This document shows positions 18,218-64,000 of a DNA stretch of 64,000 nt, one piece after another; the stretch's first letter is position 1, and every line of letters starts with the position of its first letter. This stretch comes from an uncultured Chloroflexia bacterium. Its GTDB lineage: Bacteria; Chloroflexota; Limnocylindria; QHBO01. Below the pieces are notes generated by a model. The model was not told where the DNA came from, did not search any database, and saw only the letters and a list, made by a program, of their open reading frames with translations. Location of the stretch: positions 20,311-84,310 of the forward strand of contig OY969424.1 in NCBI GenBank assembly GCA_963699235.1, in the 5' to 3' direction. The translations under genes were made by a program, and so were the position numbers.

Positions 18218-18912
18218 GCGCGGCGGCCGCGACACCGGATGAGCTGATGATCGCGGCCGCGGCCGCGGAGCTGGTGGGGGTCCGCACCGTCTTCGTGGGC
18301 ATCGGCCTGCCCAACGCCGCCGCCAATCTCGCCCGCCAGACGGTGGCGCCGGACCTCGAGCTGATCTACGAATCGGGCGTCATCGGCTCCCGGCCAACGA
18401 GGCTCCCGGACAGCATCGGCGATCCCGCCCTCGTCTCCGGCGCGACGGCGACGATGTCGATGCACGACCTGTTCGCCTACTTCCTGCAGGGCGGGCGGAT
18501 CGAGGTCGGGATGCTGGGCGCGGCCCAGATCGACCGCTGGGGCAACCTGAACACCACCGTCATCGGTCCCTATCAGCACCCGATCACCCGCCTGCCCGGA
18601 TCGGGCGGTGCGTGCGAGATCGCGCTGAATGCCGGCCGGGTGGTGATCGTCATGAACCAGTCGCCGAAGACCTTCGTCGAGCGCGTCGACTTCGTGACCT
18701 CGCCGGGCCACCGCCACCCCGATGGCTCGCCCCGACCGGGCTGGGCCGGTGCCGGCCCGACATCGGTCATCACCCAGCTGGCGACCTACCGCTTCGGAGC
18801 CGATGGCGAGATTGAGCTGGCCGCCCTCCACCAAGGCGTCTCGGACGCTGACGTGGATGCCGCCTCCGGCTGGCCGATTCGCCGCGCCGAGACGCGAGTT
18901 GGCGACGGGTGA
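18214..18912 (+). CDS. CoA-transferase subunit B (GctB-like)
   Basis: FVGIGLP, LIYESG, LGAAQIDRWGNLN, RLPGSGGA, VDFVTSPG. Confidence 0.88.
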   Translation: MSAAAATPDELMIAAAAAELVGVRTVFVGIGLPNAAANLARQTVAPDLELIYESGVIGSRPTRLPDSIGDPALVSGATATMSMHDLFAYFLQGGRIEVGMLGAAQIDRWGNLNTTVIGPYQHPITRLPGSGGACEIALNAGRVVIVMNQSPKTFVERVDFVTSPGHRHPDGSPRPGWAGAGPTSVITQLATYRFGADGEIELAALHQGVSDADVDAASGWPIRRAETRVGDG

Positions 18913-19466
18913 GTCTCGCGAGGATCGGCGTCTGCGCCGTCGTGCTCGTCCTCACCGCCTGCACTGCGCCCTCAAGCGAGGCTCCCTCGCCGAGCGGCAC
19001 GCCGTTCTCCGTCGGCGGCCAGGCGGCAGCCATCGGCTGCGGGGACGACATCGACCTCCGTGCCAGCGACGGCCGCGTGATCGACCTCACCGGGCTGTGG
19101 ACCGAACCCGATTTCTCGGATACGCCGCGGTGGAACATCCGCCAGGTCGGGGACTGCTTCTTCATGGTCTACCGCCCTCCACCGGGCCTCGAGGATCCCG
19201 AGTACTTCGACCAGCTCTGTGACGGACGCATCAGGATCGACTACACGATCACCGGACGCTGCATTGACTTCATTCACCGATCCGGTCCCGGGGTCATCAG
19301 CGGGCAGGCGGACCTCCAGCCGCAGATCTTCCGCATCCTCTTCGACGACGCGAACGAGGTCCAGCTCCAGCGGTGCCCGGCCAGCCTTGCGCCGGGCTCG
19401 TGCGAGGTGCCGATGATCCGCTTCGATCCCGAAAACGTGCCCGCCGAGAGCGCCTCGCCGAGCTAG
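18909..19466 (+). CDS. Lipoprotein, Cys-patterned paralog family (L1)
   Basis: Lipobox VLTAC; GC..IDL..SDG..IDLTGLW...IRQVGDC shared with six genes at 56.8-63.8 kb. Confidence 0.75.
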   Translation: MSLARIGVCAVVLVLTACTAPSSEAPSPSGTPFSVGGQAAAIGCGDDIDLRASDGRVIDLTGLWTEPDFSDTPRWNIRQVGDCFFMVYRPPPGLEDPEYFDQLCDGRIRIDYTITGRCIDFIHRSGPGVISGQADLQPQIFRILFDDANEVQLQRCPASLAPGSCEVPMIRFDPENVPAESASPS

Positions 19467-20372
19467 GGCCTGTCCAGCAGGTCGCTGACCGAGGTCAGCA
19501 GCAGGCCGCGCTGCCGAAGGGCGGGAACCAGGATCTCGAGCGCGGCGAGGGTTTCGTAGCCGCCCAGGTGCATGAGGATGATGGAGCCGCTGCCCGCGGT
19601 GGTCACCACCCGGGTCGCTATCTGCTCGGCCGTTGGTCCGCCGTCGGCCAGCGGTCTCCAGTCAATCGTGTCCAGGGTCCACATGATCGTCTTGGTGTAG
19701 CCCACGCTCGCGGCGGCGGCCAGCACCCGGTCGTCGTAGGCGGCGTTCGGCGGACGCCAGTAGGGCAGCGGATCCTGGCCGGTGCCGGCCTCCAGGATCG
19801 CCGCCGCATCGGTCAGCTCGGCAGTAATGAAGTCGTCGCTTGGCGGCCCGTCGGTCCGGCATGGAACCCGGGACGGCGAGCCCTCCCCTCCGACCCGCAG
19901 GTTGCAGTGGTGCATGGTGTGGTTGCCGATCTCGAACAGCTCGGGGTGGCCTGCGATGATGGACAGAACCGCATGCCCCGTGGCCGTCTCGCTCATGGCC
20001 CCGGTCGGGAACAGGGTGGTGCAGACCTGGTTCGCGATCAGGAAGGCCATGATGTCGAGGGCAGGGTCGAGGCGGCCGCCCATGTCGAAGGTCAGGGCCA
20101 TCGCCTCGCCGGCGTCCGGAACGGTGGCGATGATCTCGGGGCTCCCGGCTGTGGGCCGTGGCCCCGTCGTACAGCCGCTGGCCACCACGGTCGGGCCGGG
20201 CGTGGGCGCGCGAGTCGGATCGGCCGTCGGAGATTCGGTCGTCGGATTGACCGATGCGGATGGGGGCGCGCTGACCGATGGCGAGCTCGTCGGCGAGGGA
20301 GCGCCCTGGCAGCGCGGCGACGACGATGGCGGCCAAGAGGAAGGCGGCCCGGTGGCGGGGGCCGACCGGCAT
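19463..20372 (-). pseudogene. NodB-type polysaccharide deacetylase lipoprotein, split by a +1 frameshift at about 20312 (or assembly error)
   Basis: TFDMG, NHTMHH, RPP, DTIDW and LMH motifs in 19463..20188; signal peptide MPVGPRHRAAFLLAAIVVAA joins C-QGAPSPT if one base at 20312 is removed. Confidence 0.7.
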
Positions 20373-55693: not shown

Positions 55694-56131
55694 CTAGGGG
55701 GCCCGGGGCGGGGGCAGCGGCTTTCCGGTGGCGTCCACCCGTTCCTCGGCAGGGAGCTCGTCCCGGTGGAGTCGTCCGTTGGTCGGCCCGGGGATCGGCA
55801 CTGCCATCACCGAGTGGGGCACTTCGTCCAGGCGCTGCCCGACCCCGCGCAGCCCGAGCTCGCGGAGCGCGGCCGCATACCGTTCCGCGACCGCCCGGTC
55901 ACGAAGGAGGCCGAACAGGAGAGACGGATGTGCGCGGTTCAGGAGCTCGAGGGCCCGCGCCGTATCGGTCGCGTTGACCTGGTTGCGGCCGAGCTGTGAC
56001 TCGAGGGTGTCGAGGGCGCGGTTCACCTCGCGGCGGGTGCCGCTGCTGAAGCTGACCCGGTTGGCCACAATGCGGGTCTCGCGCAGGGCGGCCCGGGTGA
56101 CGTCGTCGCGGCTGCGCGGCGCGGAGGTCAT
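55694..56131 (-). CDS. Hypothetical protein
   Basis: 145-aa ORF; TAAGAT box 6 nt upstream of ATG. Confidence 0.6.
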   Translation of the reverse strand: MTSAPRSRDDVTRAALRETRIVANRVSFSSGTRREVNRALDTLESQLGRNQVNATDTARALELLNRAHPSLLFGLLRDRAVAERYAAALRELGLRGVGQRLDEVPHSVMAVPIPGPTNGRLHRDELPAEERVDATGKPLPPPRAP

Positions 56132-56800
56132 ATGGCCATCTTACGGGCTGAGGGGGAGTGGCAGGCAACGGTCGCCCACGCCCTGGCCACGGCCGAACGA
56201 CCGATTCCGGTGGACCCGCGCTTCGTCCCACGTCGGGCCGTCCCCGACCCGGCCCAGGAGGAAGCCGATGCCCGGCGGTTCGACCGTTCCCGCTTCCCGA
56301 CGGCGCGCGCCGCAGCGACCCTCCTGCTCATCTACCCGTCGGACGGGACGCTGGTCATCCCGCTCACTGTCCGCCACGACGCGCTGGCCTCCCATCCGGG
56401 CGAGATCAGCCTCCCGGGCGGCGCGGTGGATGCCGACGACGCGAGCCTGGAAGATACGGCGCTGCGAGAGGCCCGGGAGGAGATCGGCCTGGACTCCGGC
56501 TCGGTCAGGGTCGTCGGTCGGCTGGACCCGGTCTGGATCCCGATCTCGAATTTCGAGCTCGTCCCCATCGTCGCCGTCGCTGATGAGCCGCCGATGCTGA
56601 CCCTGGGCCTGGACGAGGTCGCCGAGCTGATCGAGCTCCCGCTCGACCGCCTGCTTGCGGAAGACGGCGTGACCGAGGAGGAGATCGTCGTTCCCGGCGC
56701 GGTGCTCCGGACCGGGGTCTACTTCTGGGCCGGGCACCGAGTGTGGGGTGCTACCGCCCGCACGCTGTCCATGCTGGGGACCGTGCTGGAGGGCGTCTAG
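56132..56800 (+). CDS. NUDIX hydrolase, CoA pyrophosphatase-like
   Basis: AATLLL, LTVR..L.SHPGEISLPGG, ALREAREEIGL, VWGATA; start uncertain. Confidence 0.88.
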   Translation: MAILRAEGEWQATVAHALATAERPIPVDPRFVPRRAVPDPAQEEADARRFDRSRFPTARAAATLLLIYPSDGTLVIPLTVRHDALASHPGEISLPGGAVDADDASLEDTALREAREEIGLDSGSVRVVGRLDPVWIPISNFELVPIVAVADEPPMLTLGLDEVAELIELPLDRLLAEDGVTEEEIVVPGAVLRTGVYFWAGHRVWGATARTLSMLGTVLEGV

Positions 56801-57378
56801 GCAGGGGACGGCGCGGGTGCCGCGTCGTCCGCCCGATGCAGGATGAGCGGCGCCGGGCAGGCGAAGGGCAACGGCCGGCAGCGGGCGGCGATCTCGCCCG
56901 GCTCCCGATCCTCGCGGAGTTGGATCTGCCCGGTGTCGTCCCACTCGATGAGGAACGTCACCGCGCTGGTCACCGCCATCATGAAATCGTGCTGGAGGAC
57001 GATGACTGCTGTGCTGGGCATCCGGAAGTCCGAGGTCAGGTGACCCTGGATATTGACCAGCGTCCAGAGCTCGTCCTGGGCCTGGCTCAGGAACTCGGGA
57101 TTCGCGGCCGAGCCGTAGACGCACTTTCCGACCTGGGTCAGCCAGACCGTCTCACCCGAGTCGACCAGCGCCCCTTCACCTTCCCACATGCCGGTGAGGT
57201 CGATACGCTCGCCGTCCGGGCTCAGGAGGTCGATCGACTCGCACCCCTCCGGAAGGAGGCCGCCACCATCGACACTTGATCCAGACGCGGCCGGGGCGGA
57301 CGAGGTGGCGGAGCCGGATGGCGTGCAGCCAACCACGACCACCCCGATCAATGCCGCGACCAATCGGCGGCGGGTCAT
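56797..57378 (-). CDS. Lipoprotein, Cys-patterned paralog family (L2)
   Basis: Lipobox VVVGC; GCESIDLLSPDGERIDLTGMW...QVGKCVY...RC..FACPAPL. Confidence 0.78.
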   Translation of the reverse strand: MTRRRLVAALIGVVVVGCTPSGSATSSAPAASGSSVDGGGLLPEGCESIDLLSPDGERIDLTGMWEGEGALVDSGETVWLTQVGKCVYGSAANPEFLSQAQDELWTLVNIQGHLTSDFRMPSTAVIVLQHDFMMAVTSAVTFLIEWDDTGQIQLREDREPGEIAARCRPLPFACPAPLILHRADDAAPAPSPA

Positions 57379-58196
57379 CACGGGCGGCGGTGAACCCGCG
57401 TACCCGCTTCCCGCAGGAGGCGAAGGATCTCGGCGTGGTGCGGCTCGGGAGCAGCCACGATGCTTAGGACCGCTGTGTCGCGCTTGGGCTGCCACCACGG
57501 TCCGCCGGCCACGTTGGTGACGGTCGCGCCGCCGCGCTCGGCGATGAATCCGGCCGCCGCCACGTCCCAGCGCGACAGGCCGCCGTTCTGGACGAAGGCA
57601 TCGAACCGCCCGGCACCGACCGATGCCAGGGAGAGCGCCGCACTGCCCATCCGGCGGTGGATCCGGATCTCGGGCGCGATCTTGCGTTCGCGCGACAGGC
57701 CGCCTCGGCCGAGGATGGCGAGGCTCACCACACAGTCGCCGAGGGCCTCTTTCGAGGATGCCTTCGCGAGGGACCCGTTCAGGCGGGCGGCTGCCTGGGC
57801 GGTGGCGGTGTACAGGTCGCCGCGGAGCGGATCGAAGACGACGCCGAGAACGGGCACCAGGTCTTCGATGAGCGCGATCGACACGCAGAAGTAGGGGATC
57901 CCGTTGGCGTAGTTCACCGTACCGTCGAGGGGATCGATCGCCCACCACCGCCGCGCGCCGTCGGGGCCGCCGACCCGGTCCGCGCCGGCCTCCTCGGCCA
58001 GGATCCCATCCTCCGGGAAGCGGCGCCGGATCCGCTTCGCGATGAGGGCCTCGGAGCGGAAGTCGACGTCGGTGACGACGTCGCGCCGGCTCTTGTGCCG
58101 GACCCGGCCCACCCGGCCGTAGGACTCGAGGATGAGCGTCCCGGCTGCTCGCGCCAGGCGGACCGCGAACTCGAGCTCCTCGGCGTACCGACTCAC
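57378..58196 (-). CDS. Inositol monophosphatase family protein (SuhB-like)
   Basis: DVVTDVD, AEE, WAIDPLDGTVNY, RMGSAAL, SRWDVAAA. Confidence 0.9.
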   Translation of the reverse strand: MSRYAEELEFAVRLARAAGTLILESYGRVGRVRHKSRRDVVTDVDFRSEALIAKRIRRRFPEDGILAEEAGADRVGGPDGARRWWAIDPLDGTVNYANGIPYFCVSIALIEDLVPVLGVVFDPLRGDLYTATAQAAARLNGSLAKASSKEALGDCVVSLAILGRGGLSRERKIAPEIRIHRRMGSAALSLASVGAGRFDAFVQNGGLSRWDVAAAGFIAERGGATVTNVAGGPWWQPKRDTAVLSIVAAPEPHHAEILRLLREAGTRVHRRP

Positions 58197-58238
58197 TCCG
58201 GCATGCTAGCCGGTGCCCCGACCGGCTAGGCTTGGTTC

Positions 58239-58974
58239 ATGCCGCAGATCCACCTCCACGCCGAGCCCGGCGACTACGCGCCGCTCGTCCTCCTCCCCGG
58301 CGACCCAGGGCGGGCGACGATGATTGCGTCCCGCTTCGACGGCGGCCTCGAGGCCGCCCGACTGGTCACCGAGCACCGGGGATTGCTGGGCTACACCGGG
58401 ACGGTCAACGGCCGCCCGGTCAGCGTCCAGACCACCGGGATGGGCGGCCCATCCATCGGCGTCGTGGGCGAAGAGCTGATCCGGCTGGGGGGTCGGCAGC
58501 TGGTGCGCGTCGGGACGACCGGTGCGCTGCGTAGCCGACATCGGCCTGGGCGACCTCATCATCGCCACCTCGGCGACGCCGATCGACGGCACGGTGGCGA
58601 CGTTCATGGGCGGCAGGCCGTATGCCCCGGCGTCGGACTTCGCCCTGACCCATGCCCTGGTCCACGCCGCGGAACAGCTCGAGGTCCCTCACCACATCGG
58701 GCCCATCGCCAGCATCGACGTCTTCTCGCACTACCACCCCGATCCACAGTTCGTCCGCCCGTGGCGCGACGCCGGGATCCTCTGTGTCGAGATGGAGGCC
58801 AGCGTCCTGTTCTATCTGGCTGCGACGAAAGGAGTCCAGGCCGCGTGCCTGGGGGTGGCGGTGGACATCGACTCGGGCGAGGAGAACCAGGAGCACACGT
58901 ACCTGAGCGCCGAGGAGCTGGCGGCGGCCGTCGAGCGGATGATCGACGTCGCCTTCACCGCCGAGATCGGCTAG
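58239..58974 (+). pseudogene. deoD: DeoD-type purine nucleoside phosphorylase with +1 frameshift at about 58533 (or assembly error)
   Basis: LPGDPGRA, RGLLGYTG, TGMGGPS, RVGTTG in one frame; GDLII, SIDVF, VEMEAS in the next; joined length about 244 aa. Confidence 0.8.
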
Positions 58975-59234
58975 CTGGCGGTCCTCATTCGGTCGCGGAT
59001 CGGCCCGTAGACGGCGAGGAGCAGGATGGCGCCGATCGAGGCGCCGATGAACCCGCCCGGGCGGAGCTCGAACCCCTCCCCCAGCAGGACGCTGAACAGC
59101 GTGCCGCCGACCACCGAGCCGGCGAGGCCGACGATGAACAGTTCGAGGGGGGTGAAGCCGCGGCGGGCGCCGACGACGCGGTTGGCGACCCAGCCAGCGA
59201 CGATGCCGATGATGATGATGGCGATGAAGATCAT
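58971..59234 (-). CDS. GlsB/YeaQ/YmgE (transglycosylase-associated) small membrane protein
   Basis: IIGIVAGWVA, VGLAGSVVGG, IGASIGAILLL. Confidence 0.85.
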   Translation of the reverse strand: MIFIAIIIIGIVAGWVANRVVGARRGFTPLELFIVGLAGSVVGGTLFSVLLGEGFELRPGGFIGASIGAILLLAVYGPIRDRMRTAS

Positions 59235-59261
59235 GGACGCTCAGGATACCGTGGGCACCGT

Positions 59262-59822
59262 TCACTCTGCCCGCTTCAGGACGAGCGGAGCCGGGCAGAA
59301 GCCGCCGGGGTCTGGGCATCGTGGCCCGCTGACGCCCGGCTCGCGGTCTTCGCGCAGGAGGATCTCACCCGAGTCGTCGAACTCGACGAACATTCGGAGC
59401 GCGGAGTACGGGGTGATACCGCACGGACATTGCACCAGGTAGAGAATCTCCCCGGTGATGATGTAATCGGACCCCATTCGCCCGGCGAGGCTCTGAACGT
59501 GGTCCGGCCGCGGGTCGAGACTCCCCGCCGGCGGCACATCCTCGATGTGGCCGGCGCCCCACACGCAATCCCCTTCGGTGCGGATGTACCACGTCATGAG
59601 GGGGGCGGCGGTGCCAACCTCGGCCCACGTCCCGTCAAGGACCACTCGCTCTCCATCTGGGCTGCTCAAGTTGATGAGCTCACACCCGGGAGGGAGGTTC
59701 GCGGCACCCTCCTCCGATCCGCTGGGGGAGGGCGTGGCGGATGAAGGCGTTGTGGTCGGCGAGGAGCAGGCCGCGAGCAGGAAGACGCTCAGGATGCCGA
59801 CGGCGACGGGGCGGGCACGCAT
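59262..59822 (-). CDS. Lipoprotein, Cys-patterned paralog family (L3)
   Basis: Lipobox LLAAC; LPPGC..INLSSPDGERVVLDGTW...GDCVW...GPRCPDPGGFCPAPL. Confidence 0.8.
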   Translation of the reverse strand: MRARPVAVGILSVFLLAACSSPTTTPSSATPSPSGSEEGAANLPPGCELINLSSPDGERVVLDGTWAEVGTAAPLMTWYIRTEGDCVWGAGHIEDVPPAGSLDPRPDHVQSLAGRMGSDYIITGEILYLVQCPCGITPYSALRMFVEFDDSGEILLREDREPGVSGPRCPDPGGFCPAPLVLKRAE

Positions 59823-59911
59823 CACGGGCGAGCATACGGGAGGCAGTGGCTGCGCGGAATCCCTTGGCTTGACGGCGACCATCGGCTCTTGAACAGGAGG
59901 CGCCCGGACCG

Positions 59912-60290
59912 ATGACCAAGACCAAGCCTGCTCCCGCGGCCGAGACGACCGACTTCCTGCCCCTCAAGGGCATCGATCACGTCGAGTTCTGGGTCGGCAA
60001 CGCGAAGCGGGCCGCCCACTACTCCCGGACGCGATGGGGCTTCACGCCAGTTGCCTATGCGGGGCTCGAGACCGGCGTCAGGGATCGGTCCAGCTTCGTG
60101 CTCGTCCAGAACGACATCCGCTTCGTGTTCACCGCGCCCCTAAAGCCCCGAGGGCGAGGTCGCGGAGCACGTTCGAAAGCATGGCGACGGGGTCAATGAC
60201 ATTGCCTTCGCGGTGGACGACGTCACGTCAGCCTGGCGCGAGACGACCGCGCGCGGGGCGGTCTCGGCCCTCGAGCCGACCGCGCCGGCT
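59912..60290 (+). pseudogene. hppD: Truncated, frameshifted 5' duplicate of hppD
   Basis: First ~125 codons clearly homologous to 61525ff; +1 in CCCC run 60146-60149; homology stops at the L4 stop codon. Confidence 0.88.
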
Positions 60291-60855
60291 AGTCGATTCG
60301 ACGCAAGAGCAGCGGGCTCAAGCAGAAGATGCTCGGATCGAGGCACCGAGGCCCCTCGGCGCCAGGCTCGCGGTCTTCATGCAGGGTGACCTCGCCGGCA
60401 TCGTCGAACTCGATCAGGAACCGGATCGGTGCGTAGATCGGGTTCCCGGACCCAAACCCATCCCCCTGCGGGCCCAGGAGCAGGATCTCGCCCTCGATCG
60501 TGTAGTCGCTTCCAATTGTCCCCGCGAAGGTCTGGATGCTGAGCAAACCGAGAGCGCCGTCGGGGACCTCGTCGGTTGCCCCAGCGCCCCACACGCAATC
60601 GCCCAGATCCCGGATCCACCAGGTCCGCGGATCGGCCTCCTCGACCGCATCTTCTCGCCACGTCCCGTCAAGATCGATGCGCTCCCCGTCTGACGAGGCC
60701 AGATCGATCGGCTGGCAGCCCGGTGGGAGGGCTCCTTCCTGCACAGTCGAGGCCCGCACCGATGGCGCGGGCGTGACGGTCGGCTGCGGAGTGCCGGTGC
60801 AGGCGCCAACGCTGGCGAGCGCGAGCAGACCAATGACGAGCGGACGGACGCGCAT
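60289..60855 (-). CDS. Lipoprotein, Cys-patterned paralog family (L4)
   Basis: Lipobox SVGAC; LPPGCQPIDLASSDGERIDLDGTW...GDCVW...GPRC. Confidence 0.8.
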   Translation of the reverse strand: MRVRPLVIGLLALASVGACTGTPQPTVTPAPSVRASTVQEGALPPGCQPIDLASSDGERIDLDGTWREDAVEEADPRTWWIRDLGDCVWGAGATDEVPDGALGLLSIQTFAGTIGSDYTIEGEILLLGPQGDGFGSGNPIYAPIRFLIEFDDAGEVTLHEDREPGAEGPRCLDPSIFCLSPLLLRRID

Positions 60856-60858
60856 CGG

Positions 60859-61434
60859 CTACGGCTCGATCGGCCGGAGGACGAGCGGGGCCGGACAGAA
60901 GCCGGCCGGGTCGGGGCAGCGTGGTCCTCGGACGGCCGGGTCACGGTCCTCGCTGAGGAAGATGGCACCCTCAGCGTCCCAGTCGATCTCCATCAGGAGC
61001 GGCGAGTACCGAGGTGGATTGCCCGGCGCGCCCAGCGGAGTACCGCCCAGCCAGAGGATCTCGCCGGTGATGACGTAATCGGAGCCGATCCGTCCCGACA
61101 GGCTCTGGACCTGGTCGTGACGGGCCTCGATCGTTCCTCCTGCCGCGGGCTCATCGACACTGCCGGTTGCCCACACACAGTCGCCCACGGTGACGATCCA
61201 CCACGTCATGAGGTGGCCGGCCTCCGCGTCCTCGACCCAGGTTCCGTCCAGGACGACGCGTTCGCCGTCCGGGCTGCGCAGGTCAATCGTCTCGCAGCCG
61301 GGGGGAAGATTCCCGGTCTGCTCGATGGGGTCGCTCGCTGATGGCGAAGGCGTCACGGTTGGCGAGGGGCTGCTGGTGCAGGCAGCGACTCCCACGAGGA
61401 CGAACAGGCCCACGGCGGCCGGACGGGCGCGCAT
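60859..61434 (-). CDS. Lipoprotein, Cys-patterned paralog family (L5)
   Basis: Lipobox GVAAC; LPPGCETIDLRSPDGERVVLDGTW...GDCVW...GPRCPDPAGFCPAPL. Confidence 0.8.
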   Translation of the reverse strand: MRARPAAVGLFVLVGVAACTSSPSPTVTPSPSASDPIEQTGNLPPGCETIDLRSPDGERVVLDGTWVEDAEAGHLMTWWIVTVGDCVWATGSVDEPAAGGTIEARHDQVQSLSGRIGSDYVITGEILWLGGTPLGAPGNPPRYSPLLMEIDWDAEGAIFLSEDRDPAVRGPRCPDPAGFCPAPLVLRPIEP

Positions 61435-61524
61435 GAGTGGAGCATACGAGAGGGCGAGCGGCGAGCGGAAGCGCGTGGACGGACGGCGTACCATCGGTCC
61501 CTGAAGAGGGAGGCGCCCGAACCG

Positions 61525-62652
61525 ATGGCCACGACCAAGCCGGCCCCCACGGCCGAGACGACCGACTTCCTGCCCCTCAAGGGCATCGACCACGTCGAGT
61601 TCTGGGTCGGCAATGCGAAGCAGGCCGCGCACTACTTCCGGACGTTGTGGGGCTTCACACCGGTGGCCTACGCCGGGCTCGAGACCGGCGTGCGGGATCG
61701 ATCGAGCTTCGTGCTGGTCCAGAACGACATCCGCTTCGTGTTCACTGCCCCGCTCACGCCTGATGGCGAGGTGGCGGAGCACGTCCGGAAGCACGGCGAC
61801 GGGGTGCACGACATCGCGTTCTCGGTGGACGACGTCGCATCCGCCTGGCGCGAGACCACGGCGCGCGGGGCCGTATCGGCCCTGGATCCGACCGAGTCGC
61901 CGGGCGATAAGGGCGTGTTGCGGACATCCGCCATCCATACGTACGGCGAGGTGATCCACACCTTCGTGGACCGATCGGACTACGCCGGCACGTATGCCCC
62001 CGGCTTCCATCGGATCAAGGACCCGGCGCCGGCGGCCACCGGCCAGACCCTTGAGATGATCGACCACTGCGTCGGGAACGTGGCCCTGGGCGACATGAAT
62101 CGGTACGTGGACTTCTACCGGGAGGTGCTGGGCTTCAGCCAGCTCGTGCACTTCGACGACAACGCGATCCATACCGAGTACAGCGCCCTCATGAGCAAGG
62201 TCATGCAGAACGGGGACGGGCGGATCAAGTTCCCGATCAACGAGCCCGCCGAGGGCAAGCGGAAGAGCCAGATCCAGGAGTTCCTCGACTACTACCTCGA
62301 CGCGGGCACCCAGCACATCGCGCTGCTGACGACCGACATCGTTGGGACGGTCCGCGCGCTCCGCGGCCGGGGAGTCGAGTTCCTCGGCCTGCCGCACGAG
62401 TACTTCGCGGCGCTCCCGGACCGGGTCGGCGACGTGGGCATCCCGATCGACACCCTGGAAGAGCTGGGAATCGAGGCCGACCGTGACGAGGAGGGCTACC
62501 TCCTCCAGATCTTCACCAAGCCGATCCAGGACCGCCCGACGTTTTTCTTCGAGATCATCGAGCGCCACGGCTCACGGGGGTTCGGGCTTGGGAACTTCAA
62601 GGCCCTGTTCGAGGCGATCGAGCTGGAGCAGGAGAAGCGCGGCAACCTCTGA
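61525..62652 (+). CDS. hppD: 4-hydroxyphenylpyruvate dioxygenase
   Basis: IDHCVGNV, HTEYSALMSKV, IKFPINEP, SQIQEFL, QHIAL, LLQIFTKP, FFEIIER, FGLGNFKALFEAIE. Confidence 0.97.
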   Translation: MATTKPAPTAETTDFLPLKGIDHVEFWVGNAKQAAHYFRTLWGFTPVAYAGLETGVRDRSSFVLVQNDIRFVFTAPLTPDGEVAEHVRKHGDGVHDIAFSVDDVASAWRETTARGAVSALDPTESPGDKGVLRTSAIHTYGEVIHTFVDRSDYAGTYAPGFHRIKDPAPAATGQTLEMIDHCVGNVALGDMNRYVDFYREVLGFSQLVHFDDNAIHTEYSALMSKVMQNGDGRIKFPINEPAEGKRKSQIQEFLDYYLDAGTQHIALLTTDIVGTVRALRGRGVEFLGLPHEYFAALPDRVGDVGIPIDTLEELGIEADRDEEGYLLQIFTKPIQDRPTFFFEIIERHGSRGFGLGNFKALFEAIELEQEKRGNL

Positions 62653-62658
62653 GCGGCG

Positions 62659-63216
62659 CTATGGCTCGGTTCGGCGGAGTTCGAGGGGCTCTGGGCACGG
62701 GCCATCGCCACCGAAGCAGCCGGGCGGGCCAGTGTTCGTCCGATCCTCGACCAGGACCATGTCTTCGCCCTCGAAGGTGACCCGGAGAACGGCGTCGCCG
62801 TGGTCGTAACCCGGGATGAGCTGGCCGGTCATGTCGGCGAACGTCCCGACGATCAGAAAATCCGAGCCCAGCCGCCCGTGGAATGTCGAGAGGAACGGCG
62901 GCTCGCCGTCTCCGATGGCCACGTGGCCGACGATCCAGACGCAGTCACCGATCTGCCGCAGGTAGGACACCATGTCCGAGCCCCCGTCCCAAGTAGAGGT
63001 GCCTCCCGGCCCGTCGCCCAGGACCACCTGCTCGCCATCGGGACCGATAAGGCTCGGCGTTACGGATACATCGCAGCCCGTCGACCCGGCAGCGCCGTCA
63101 CTCGGCCTGGCTGAAGGACCGGCCGATTCCGCGGGCGCGGAAGGGGAGCATGCGGCGAGGAGCACAAACCCGAGCACCATGGCGACCCGGCGGGCGCGGG
63201 TCGGGACGAGCGGCAC
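62659..63216 (-). CDS. Lipoprotein, Cys-patterned paralog family (L6)
   Basis: Lipobox LLAAC; GPDGEQVVL...LRQIGDCVW...GRLGSDF...C-x6-CPEPL; GTG start 6 nt after CACACT. Confidence 0.75.
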   Translation of the reverse strand: MPLVPTRARRVAMVLGFVLLAACSPSAPAESAGPSARPSDGAAGSTGCDVSVTPSLIGPDGEQVVLGDGPGGTSTWDGGSDMVSYLRQIGDCVWIVGHVAIGDGEPPFLSTFHGRLGSDFLIVGTFADMTGQLIPGYDHGDAVLRVTFEGEDMVLVEDRTNTGPPGCFGGDGPCPEPLELRRTEP

Positions 63217-63260
63217 GCAGACAGTGTGACCGGGCCCGGAGCCTGCCGTCGAGGGGCACA

Positions 63261-63296
63261 AGGCAGGTCACGGCAGGTCACGGCGGGTCACGGCGG
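63261..63296. repeat. 10-bp tandem repeat (A/C)GGC(A/G)GGTCA x3 plus a partial copy
   Basis: aggcaggtca cggcaggtca cggcgggtca cggcgg. Confidence 0.7.
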
Positions 63297-63800
63297 ACCG
63301 TCCACCCGTCTCATCGTTGCAGCGTAGTAGCTGCACGGGTCGTCTTCGAAGATCTCTGTGGTGAGCTGGATCTCGCCGTCGTCCCCGAACTCGATCTGGA
63401 AGTTGGCGGGACAGTTTCGCGGGGCGTGGAGCTCGGCGGTGAAGATCTCCGACCACTCGCCGCTGAGTGTGAAGTCGGGGGCGATGTGGCCGCTGAAGGT
63501 GAGGAGCCACGCACTGCCCAGATCGTCGCCCGGCCAGCTGCTGAATCCGACCCACCAGACGCAATCGTCGTGTTGGCGAGCTTCGTGGAACGTCACGCCG
63601 CCCTGCCAAGCCCCGGTCAGATCGACCTCCTCGCCGTCCGGTGACCGCAGGTCCACCGGGTGACAGCCCTGGCCGACCGCCGCTTCGGAGGGCGCCGGCG
63701 ACCCGGATGATCCGGGCTCAACGGACGAAGCGGGCGAGCGGCAGCCGGCGAGGATGACGACGGCGAGGATGCAGCCGAGCCCGAGAAGCGTTCGCGGCAT
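63288..63800 (-). CDS. Lipoprotein, Cys-patterned paralog family (L7)
   Basis: Lipobox ILAGC; GCHPVDLRSPDGEEVDLTGAW...ARQHDDCVW...IEFGDDGEIQL. Confidence 0.78.
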   Translation of the reverse strand: MPRTLLGLGCILAVVILAGCRSPASSVEPGSSGSPAPSEAAVGQGCHPVDLRSPDGEEVDLTGAWQGGVTFHEARQHDDCVWWVGFSSWPGDDLGSAWLLTFSGHIAPDFTLSGEWSEIFTAELHAPRNCPANFQIEFGDDGEIQLTTEIFEDDPCSYYAATMRRVDGPP

Positions 63801-63896
63801 GGCGGCGATTCTTGCACGCCGCCCCACTCTCCCGACCGGGTGAGGTCCCCTTGGGCATTCGGCCCCGCGAACGTCCGGATTCAGCCGTGAAGACCG

Positions 63897-63931
63897 GGCA
63901 GGACGCCCGCCGCGAAGGCGGGCGTCCTGCC
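63897..63931. terminator. Perfect 15-bp GC stem-loop, probable terminator of the incoming minus-strand gene
   Basis: GGCAGGACGCCCGCC-GCGAA-GGCGGGCGTCCTGCC. Confidence 0.65.
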
Positions 63932-63956
63932 GTGGCGCGATCCCCGAGAAGGCGCC

Positions 63957-64000
63957 TCAGGGCACGTCGAACTCGAGGCTGTTCACGACCTCCGTGGAGC
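63957..64000 (-). CDS. 3' end of an unidentified gene (…STEVVNSLEFDVP*)
   Basis: Open frame with typical codons ending in TGA at 63957-63959, followed by the hairpin. Confidence 0.4.
   Translation of the reverse strand, partial: STEVVNSLEFDVP

Follow-up and report, generated by a model that had tools for sequence, protein, structure and literature searches.

Here, we identify a new, previously unnamed family of bacterial lipoproteins in an uncultured Chloroflexia bacterium (GTDB lineage Bacteria; Chloroflexota; Limnocylindria; QHBO01). Seven members are encoded in the 64,000-nucleotide stretch that was analyzed (positions 20,311 to 84,310 of contig OY969424.1, assembly GCA_963699235.1; hereafter, the window), six of them (L1 to L6) in an array interspersed with housekeeping genes and one (L7) at a distance. 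With moderate confidence, we suggest that these proteins are membrane-tethered, non-enzymatic binders built on a calycin-type beta-barrel, and that with their paralog-specific loops they capture or sense small hydrophobic or envelope-active molecules. Lineage-specific expansions of lipoprotein families with a calycin-like scaffold are already known in outline. What appears to be new here is a three-slot syntenic array of such predicted barrels in a free-living bacterium with a small genome, and its link to extracytoplasmic function (ECF) sigma modules.

The family rests on shared sequence features, many of which had been pointed out in an earlier note made from the DNA letters alone. Listing and translating the open reading frames (ORFs) of the window recovered all seven paralogs as intact ORFs of 170 to 193 amino acids (Table 1). 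Each has a lipobox, a Pro/Ser linker and a shared scaffold, and the blocks GC..IDL.SPDGE.I.L.G.W, GDCVW, G.I..D(Y/F).I.G and E(F/W)DD.GE are all visible in the alignment, as described earlier, with segments of varying length and sequence between them. In a seven-way alignment, L2 to L7 are 27 to 36% identical to L1, and the lipobox Cys, G45-C46, L51, D55-G56, L61, W65, C86, G112 and D117 are invariant. Because profile E-values for the seven copies range from 2e-81 to 8.5e-55, their similarity is beyond chance. The terminal block C-x6-C-P.PL.L.R, attributed earlier to most copies, is present in L1 to L5, takes the form C-x8-C in L7 and is missing from L6, which has Cys residues at 130 and 156 instead. 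The mature domain contains four Cys residues in five of the copies and six in the other two, L2 (extra C132 and C134) and L7 (extra C104 and C118); the extra cysteines that the earlier note assigned to L1 and L3 thus belong to L2 and L7 when the copies are numbered by coordinate.

All seven copies match the lipobox pattern [LVI][ASTVIG][GAS]C (VVGC, LAAC, VGAC, VAAC, LAAC, LAGC and LTAC), at 18 to 23 residues from the chosen start, and in each a ~25-residue linker enriched in Pro, Ser, Thr and Ala comes after the lipobox. The genome encodes both Lgt (PF01790 match at C1:496423-497185, with a frame break at 497022-497027) and the signal peptidase II LspA (PF01252 match at C1:1256666-1257076). 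From the lipobox and the presence of these genes, we predict that the family members are exported and acylated as Lgt/LspA-type lipoproteins.

The genome that contains the window is a single contig of 2.09 Mb with ~70% GC. A genome-wide count with the family profile gave 13 solid members (E≤2e-19), of which six lie outside the window and four of these six carry C-terminal extensions. A rough regular-expression count gave ~90 ORFs with a lipobox, and the family accounts for roughly 11 to 14% of the predicted lipoproteome. The seven-sequence profile detected 1 to 17 copies each in 14 of the 17 other genomes of the genus; three members of the genus are without the family, and none of 23 genomes from other genera matches at E≤1e-5. 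A 45-sequence profile run against 301 genomes of the class found one or two distant copies per genome in three other genera of the same taxonomic family and in two genera of a second one. The expansion is, therefore, confined to one genus, and elsewhere in the class there are at most two distant copies.

None of the libraries searched contains a description of the family, in line with the earlier statement that no known family name fits. None of the seven copies matched Pfam or NCBIfam at E≤1 (Pfam Lipocalin*, YceI, THAP4_heme-bd and Avidin included, by hmmscan), and none matched PADLOC or PHROGs. A sequence-profile search of the PDB gave no credible relative, its best match (E 0.021) spanning only signal-peptide and linker positions, and a search of the genome contigs with L4 alone returned no related locus. 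Among 1.84 billion cluster representatives, 293 clusters matched at E≤1e-3; the named homologs are all "hypothetical protein" from Chloroflexota or Candidatus Limnocylindria metagenome-assembled genomes, and none has a Pfam domain. Limnocylindria are an abundant, uncultivated Chloroflexota class of soils, sediments and lakes, and the comparative-genomics paper that describes them makes no mention of lipoproteins (PMC13212565). The domain also occurs in other architectures, including two-domain forms with two kinds of C-terminal module. In a secreted metagenomic protein of 609 amino acids (P0117), the barrel domain occurs twice, on either side of a center of ~300 residues without a recognized family. 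Because of the two-domain forms and this double-domain protein, the domain appears to behave as a portable extracytoplasmic module. Pfam searches of the C-terminal extensions of the two-domain members, and of the anti-sigma-like N-termini described below, found nothing.

Two structural models point to a small beta-barrel. The AlphaFold2 model of L4, built with 45 aligned sequences, has a mean pLDDT (predicted local distance difference test) of 79 and a predicted template modeling score (pTM) of 0.70; the N-terminal 45 residues are disordered and strands are predicted at 64-68, 76-83, 86-96, 102-116, 121-130, 142-152, 158-162 and 185-188. The model of L7, made for the mature domain only (pLDDT 89.9, pTM 0.81), has eight strands at positions homologous to those in L4. 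In both models, the eight strands follow each other in meander order. The earlier note had proposed comparing folds between copies, and L4 and L7 share the same eight-strand layout. Coherent top Foldseek matches are all of calycin type (4ge1, 4xmc, 4inn, 2c1q, 4bj8, 1avd and 3ia8; TM 0.35 to 0.50). For L4, the best match is the amine-binding lipocalin of Rhodnius (4ge1; E 0.022, TM 0.37), with nitrophorin 7, the Helicobacter pylori lipocalin HP1028, APCDD1, avidin and nitrobindin among the others. For L7, the matches include APCDD1, nitrophorin 4 and several avidins (target-normalized TM 0.44 to 0.50), the best E-value being 0.15. At the start of predicted strand A, G64 is nearly invariant and W66 is invariant. 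A G-x-W on the first strand is the signature of structurally conserved region 1 (SCR1) of lipocalins, and in the model G64-x-W66 corresponds to it.

On the predicted fold, the conserved blocks map to the N-terminal cap, to the turns B-C (GDC), D-E ((G)SD(Y/F)) and F-G (DD.GE), and to the G-H segment with its Cys residues, while differences in length and sequence cluster in the A-B, C-D and E-F connections. Every second connection of an up-and-down barrel is located at the same pole. By this topology, A-B, C-D and E-F would be placed together at one end of the barrel, and the opposite end would carry the conserved turns and the N-terminal cap, hence the tether, a layout that would correspond to a binding site of lipocalin type pointing outward from the membrane. 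Cys47-Cys86 and the C-x6-C pair probably form two disulfides. Over 45 sequences, the only invariant residues are Cys, Gly and Trp, which argues against an enzyme.

We compared evolutionary rates with region-wise Nei-Gojobori (NG86) dN/dS ratios pooled over ten phylogenetically independent close pairs, a measure that is blind to site-specific positive selection. Pooled dN/dS is 0.25 for the core together with the N-terminal cap, 0.28 for the G-H segment and 0.46 for the linker; loops A-B, C-D and E-F have 0.67, 0.40 and 0.78, respectively, and the three loops together 0.56. In the four closest pairs, the core has 0.19 and the loops have 0.57. Neighboring genes in the same genomes have values of 0.08 to 0.20 (SuhB), 0.065 to 0.08 (4-hydroxyphenylpyruvate dioxygenase, HPPD) and 0.09 to 0.15 (hyp145, a 145-residue protein of the locus). 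Thus, the family evolves faster than its neighbors and its loops are relaxed. Single close pairs have a loop dN/dS of ~1 or more, on 24 to 33 codons. The earlier note had inferred diversifying selection; because loop-wide omega is below 1, such selection is not demonstrated, although the loop value is above those of the core and of the neighboring genes. Among 22 orthologs of L7, the score of the commonest residue is 8.4 to 9.0 out of 10 in the strands and 5.8, 6.7 and 5.2 in the A-B, C-D and D-E loops, and there is a five-residue indel at the tip of the E-F hairpin; in the alignment, these loops appear only moderately variable. No dedicated diversification engine is at work. The genome contains no reverse transcriptase (RVT_1) and the array no near-identical donor cassettes, its repeats being paralog blocks at 60 to 82% identity and a copy of the hppD 5′ part, and on these grounds we rejected a diversity-generating retroelement (DGR) or a cassette mechanism.

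Distant members of the family provide contexts that suggest binding or sensing at the envelope. In a genome of another family of the class (G142), the barrel domain (residues 84-222, E 9.5e-16) of a 239-residue protein comes after an anti-sigma-like N-terminus and a transmembrane helix. The gene of this fusion (L032 3801-4520) is preceded by a gene with Pfam ECF-sigma domains, the stop of which overlaps the start of the fusion gene; the sigma and fusion gene pair spans L032 3253-4520 (G142:C3). The N-terminal motif RDPDRLI..FL.EGEE of the fusion also heads sigma-coupled proteins of genus g2 that have different outer domains. In three g2 genomes, a single-copy family lipoprotein gene is convergent to an ECF sigma and anti-sigma-like pair. 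In the genome of the window, the minus strand carries, in order, the family gene G13, an ECF-like sigma gene, a transmembrane Kelch-repeat protein, a second sigma copy, a Kelch lipoprotein, an ATP-binding cassette (ABC) ATPase, an ABC-2 permease and the family gene G12, which starts 4 nt past the permease ORF on the same strand. The ECF-like sigma gene lies in a 796-nt repeat, 100% identical at C1:1811231-1812026 and 1813280-1814075, and each repeat is followed by a Kelch-repeat protein, the two being paralogs of 441 and 431 residues. G008 has the same order of family gene, sigma and Kelch, G002 has part of it, and G001 has the order ABC, permease, family gene; in G013 and G017 the family gene stands alone, without the sigma/Kelch or ABC context. 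The end of a third family gene, G11, is 23 nt away from an RskA-type anti-sigma gene that is convergent with it and is itself downstream of a sigma gene. Over eight independent family loci, an estimated ~0.2 sigma adjacencies are expected by chance and two were observed. The link of the distant members to sigma modules is, therefore, suggestive but not conclusive.

Altogether, we favor a model in which a disordered Pro/Ser linker would tether a mature domain of ~140 residues to the membrane, and in which this domain would fold as an up-and-down beta-barrel of calycin (lipocalin/avidin) type with eight strands, stapled by disulfides. The conserved cap GC..IDL.SPDG, the G-x-W on strand A, the turns GDC, (G)SD(Y/F) and DD.GE, Cys47-Cys86 and C-x6-C would form the scaffold, and the A-B, C-D and E-F connections would form a binding face opposite the conserved turns and the N-terminal tether. 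The paralogs would then represent a repertoire of binders with different specificities at the outer face of the cytoplasmic membrane. A non-enzymatic binding module is most likely because no polar catalytic constellation is conserved. As for ligands, small hydrophobic or envelope-active molecules, captured or sensed, are our guess, based on the analogy with bacterial lipocalins and on the distant members that are fused or adjacent to ECF sigma/anti-sigma genes and an ABC-2 exporter. For comparison, a secreted bacterial lipocalin captures antibiotics extracellularly (PMC5350466). A bolder version of the model, in which the family is a bacterial "anticalin" repertoire, seems to us distinctly unlikely: here, positive selection at a few sites would have tuned three loops on one pole of a rigid disulfide-stapled barrel, and a panel of such membrane-tethered receptors would allow a small-genome soil or freshwater bacterium to capture or sense antimicrobials or signals, some of the receptors feeding ECF sigma/anti-sigma systems or ABC-2 exporters.

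Several observations weigh against the binder model. The lipocalin- or streptavidin-like barrel of the earlier note holds up as the best available reading, given two eight-stranded models and calycin matches; however, these matches are weak. For the L4 and L7 models, Foldseek found nothing in the PDB at E≤1e-3, and since no match reached a query-normalized TM of 0.5 the calycin assignment is a resemblance only; a fold search of BFVD returned nothing. Neither model has a helix of four or more residues, and a C-terminal helix of the lipocalin type is thus not predicted. Barrel closure, disulfide geometry, cavity and loop polarity are putative. For these reasons, we call the predicted fold calycin-like without assigning the family to the calycins. 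The arrayed copies sit among unrelated housekeeping genes that give no functional clue, and it is distant or two-domain members that have the sigma and ABC contexts. The copies in the window have lipoprotein signal peptides only and no anti-sigma architecture, and the N-terminus of the G142 fusion is without a Pfam match. Finally, with 23 sigma genes (Sigma70_r2 matches) in the 2.09-Mb genome, some adjacency is expected by chance. Independently of this, the genome is unusually rich in sigma genes for its small size.

Other functions can account for part of these data. Small eight-stranded barrel lipoproteins are a known inhibitor scaffold, as in the MliC/PliC lysozyme inhibitors, the calycin-type metalloprotease inhibitors and the staphostatins, and the family could, accordingly, be a repertoire of protein-binding inhibitors or immunity proteins whose loops block exported hydrolases, lysozyme-like enzymes or polymorphic toxins of competitors, with the array as an orphan-immunity island. 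Besides the scaffold, such a function would fit the paralog arrays, the variable loops, the variation in copy number, the faster evolution relative to the neighbors and the coupling of one member to an ABC-2 exporter, which is reminiscent of LanI with LanFEG. However, no toxin, hydrolase or secretion-system gene lies in or beside the array (the neighbors are NUDIX, SuhB, PNP, GlsB-like and HPPD genes), no copy matches MliC, Inh or other inhibitor families in Pfam even at E≤1, or PADLOC, and the copies are old positional orthologs in a region of uniform GC rather than recently acquired cassettes. We regard an inhibitor repertoire as unlikely.

The earlier note proposed surface receptors or decoys under diversifying selection. 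Exposed at the surface, these could be directed, for example, against phages or predators, and their loops would be hypervariable between strains. Loops that differ strongly between paralogs, the loop dN/dS above that of the core with the values near or above 1 in single close pairs, the copy number that varies between species and the hairpin-tip indels among L7 orthologs would all be compatible with such decoys. Against this stand the pooled loop dN/dS below 1, the fair conservation of the 22 L7 orthologs, the lack of a reverse transcriptase or donor cassettes, the translational coupling of L1, L3 and L7 to upstream genes, and the absence of any PHROG or BFVD relative, and we consider decoys improbable. 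Equally improbable in our view are structural or housekeeping envelope lipoproteins (chaperone-like proteins or assembly factors), i.e., redundant paralogs drifting under relaxed constraint with loops that confer no specificity. Although dN/dS is below 1 everywhere with loops that are merely relaxed, the genes lie within housekeeping operons and are coupled to them, and the absence of the family from three genus members suggests dispensability, redundant drifting copies would be expected to be lost. Instead, 7 to 17 intact copies are kept in genomes of ~2 Mb and slot-wise orthologs persist, the core dN/dS of 0.19 to 0.25 indicates continuing purifying selection on each paralog, and the domain has been recruited into anti-sigma-like and multi-domain proteins.

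Several known systems can be compared with the proposed binders, among them bacterial lipocalins (Blc-type lipoproteins; secreted, antibiotic-capturing proteins of BcnA/YceI type, PMC5350466). Both are exported or lipid-anchored small eight-stranded barrels, predicted as such for the family, and have a G-x-W on the first strand; both would act in non-enzymatic extracytoplasmic binding. The lipocalins 4ge1, 4xmc, 4inn, 8f0y and 6tlb are among the best Foldseek matches (TM 0.31 to 0.37, none at E≤1e-3). Unlike lipocalins, the family has no lipocalin, YceI or nitrobindin Pfam match and no predicted C-terminal helix, and it has two conserved Cys pairs and a conserved N-terminal cap; moreover, its arrays comprise 7 to 17 copies, whereas bacterial lipocalins are usually single genes. 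With avidin and streptavidin, the family shares a similar barrel size, the strand number and aromatic-rich strands, and the L7 model matches chicken BBP, zebavidin, avidin and xenavidin at a target-normalized TM of 0.44 to 0.50 (E 0.3 to 1.1, root-mean-square deviation 7.5 to 8.3 Å); in contrast to avidins, the proteins have no Avidin Pfam match, are lipid-anchored by prediction and have long variable hairpins. Among eukaryotes, fast-evolving lipocalins such as the nitrophorins and biogenic-amine-binding proteins of triatomines, the lipocalins of ticks and the major urinary proteins of rodents occur as gene arrays. These eukaryotic repertoires resemble the family in their single barrel scaffold, local arrays and loop-concentrated variation, and Rhodnius proteins are the top structural matches of L4; however, they are secreted, unrelated in sequence and have known ligands. 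The G142 fusion, G13 and G11 share their sigma/anti-sigma context with anti-sigma sensor domains (RsiV, RskA) and envelope sensors (RcsF, NlpE), from which the arrayed copies differ by their lipoprotein signal peptides and the lack of an anti-sigma domain. Like LanI with LanFEG, G12 follows an ABC ATPase and an ABC-2 permease, an arrangement kept in G001. The fold of LanI differs from that predicted for the family, only one distant two-domain member has an ABC context, and no lantibiotic genes were seen.

The array itself is old and has a fixed frame. As the earlier note had recognized, the copies are interleaved with housekeeping genes, identified by the Pfam matches CoA_trans (gctB-like, the gene upstream of L7), Inositol_P (SuhB), Transgly_assoc (glsB-like) and HPPD, to which NUDIX and PNP_UDP_1 can be added. 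L1, L3 and L7 are coupled start to stop to their upstream genes, i.e., suhB, L4 and the CoA-transferase gene, respectively. In five genus-mates, the same locus reads ABC-ATPase, hyp145, NUDIX, slot 1, SuhB, PNP, slot 2, HPPD, slot 3, with backbone proteins mostly 70 to 94% identical to those of the window (53 to 57% for the C-terminal part of PNP in two genomes). The hyp145 protein (55694-56131, minus strand) has no Pfam match, is 79 to 92% identical across species of the genus and always lies between the ABC ATPase and NUDIX genes.

Within these slots, copy number changes between species, in agreement with the expanding array of the earlier note. For slots 1, 2 and 3, respectively, the window has 1, 3 and 2 copies, G013 has 3, 4 and 3, G017 has 2, 2 and 2, G010 has 1, 3 and 3, and G016 has 1, about 4 and 1; in G012, slot 1 is not in the locus, slot 2 has 4 copies and slot 3 at least 1. 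The ranges per slot are 1-3, 2-4 and 1-3. In a tree of 36 copies, clustering is by slot and not by genome (4 label changes versus 16.4 with shuffled labels). Slot 1 forms one clade (SH-aLRT support 98, and 100/100 in a second tree), slot 2 two clades and slot 3 at least three lineages. Recent local duplicates overlie this pattern, e.g., the three slot-1 and three slot-2 copies of G013 at 60 to 78% identity. Because the tree clusters by slot with recent local duplicates superimposed, the subfamilies predate the species, and copy number shifts by local duplication and loss. By this phylogeny, the copies in the window are best read as old positional orthologs, and we suggest that the array keeps three fixed slots among the housekeeping genes, its size changing by local segmental duplication and loss. 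A horizontally acquired island was rejected, given the uniform GC of 68 to 71% across the region and the conserved backbone synteny at mostly 70 to 94% amino acid identity.

One segmental duplication can be read directly from the window (Table 1). It covers the 5′ end shared by L2 and L4, the intergenic region and the 5′ part of hppD, and ends exactly at the L3 stop; a test of L2 and L4 as sister duplicates gave a p-value of 0.446 in the approximately unbiased (AU) test. The truncated hppD copy differs from hppD at 7, 5 and 37 sites in codon positions 1, 2 and 3, and the insertion in its C-run is the only frame break. Because of this distribution, the copy has not decayed neutrally, and it appears to be constrained or recently truncated and not a decayed fossil. 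It is absent from the arrays of five relatives. In slot 3 of G013, a 27-residue fragment matching HPPD residues 315-341 lies between two copies (L026 9692-9772, G013:C1), a further sign that a segmental duplication took part of hppD with it.

The duplication also bears on the leaderless promoters that the earlier note had ascribed to several copies. Only L2 and L4 have the hexamer TATGCT, 6 to 8 nt before the ATG and common to both through duplication, and a scan of 56500-64000 with the sigma-70 consensus found no promoter site; we, therefore, rejected the general claim and keep the possibility for L2 and L4. The assembly frame-splits not only PNP but also Lgt and the ABC-2 permease, the latter (C1:1806917-1807630) with two breaks, which is consistent with indel errors throughout the assembly. 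Since the PNP gene is contiguous in G012, its break is probably a single-base assembly error rather than a sign of a pseudogene. Apparently pseudogenized family copies in G016 and G012 were not trusted because, in the same long-contig assemblies, frame breaks also affect housekeeping genes.

Table 1. Family genes, neighboring genes and duplicated segments, with positions in the window
Feature	Position	Strand	Remarks
L1, slot-1 family lipoprotein	56797..57378	-	193 aa (P0001); ATG overlaps suhB stop as TGATG
L2, slot-2 family lipoprotein	59262..59822	-	186 aa (P0002); six mature-domain Cys; glsB-like gene 27 nt downstream
L3, slot-2 family lipoprotein	60289..60855	-	188 aa (P0003); ATG 3 nt past L4 stop
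L4, slot-2 family lipoprotein	60859..61434	-	191 aa (P0004); divergent from hppD; AlphaFold-modeled
L5, slot-3 family lipoprotein	62659..63216	-	185 aa from GTG (P0005); alternative starts 63261, 63180
L6, slot-3 family lipoprotein	63288..63800	-	170 aa (P0006); alternative GTG start 63827
L7, outlying family lipoprotein	18909..19466	+	185 aa (P0007); GTG overlaps TGA of CoA-transferase B gene (GTGA)
ABC-ATPase, then hyp145, then NUDIX	left flank of array locus		conserved order in relatives
NUDIX hydrolase	56132..56800	+	left border of slot 1; Pfam
Inositol-monophosphatase family (SuhB)	57378..58196	-	upstream of L1, coupled; Pfam Inositol_P
PNP_UDP_1 phosphorylase	58239..58974	+	two frames, break near 58522-58530; Pfam
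glsB-like small membrane protein	58974..59234	-	27 nt downstream of L2; Pfam Transgly_assoc
Segmental duplicate	59763..60288	.	82% identical over 536 nt to 61375-61903
hppD copy, codons 1-123 only	59912..60281	+	85-89% aa identity; 1-nt insertion in C-run
HPPD, 4-hydroxyphenylpyruvate dioxygenase	61525..62652	+	between slots 2 and 3; Pfam
Polysaccharide deacetylase, lipoprotein-like	19466-20188	-	convergent with L7, same end coordinate; Pfam

A family that makes up about a tenth or more of the predicted lipoproteome and is expanded in one genus is a candidate for a niche-specific envelope function. Even if its members turn out not to be binders, a profile hidden Markov model of this new domain family allows several hundred "hypothetical proteins" to be annotated. 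If the proteins are loop-diversified binders, they would represent a natural, compact scaffold with which bacteria of a monoderm-type phylum capture or sense ligands. And if the barrel binds ligands, the anti-sigma-like fusion would provide an entry point to what the ECF sigma factors of this lineage sense.

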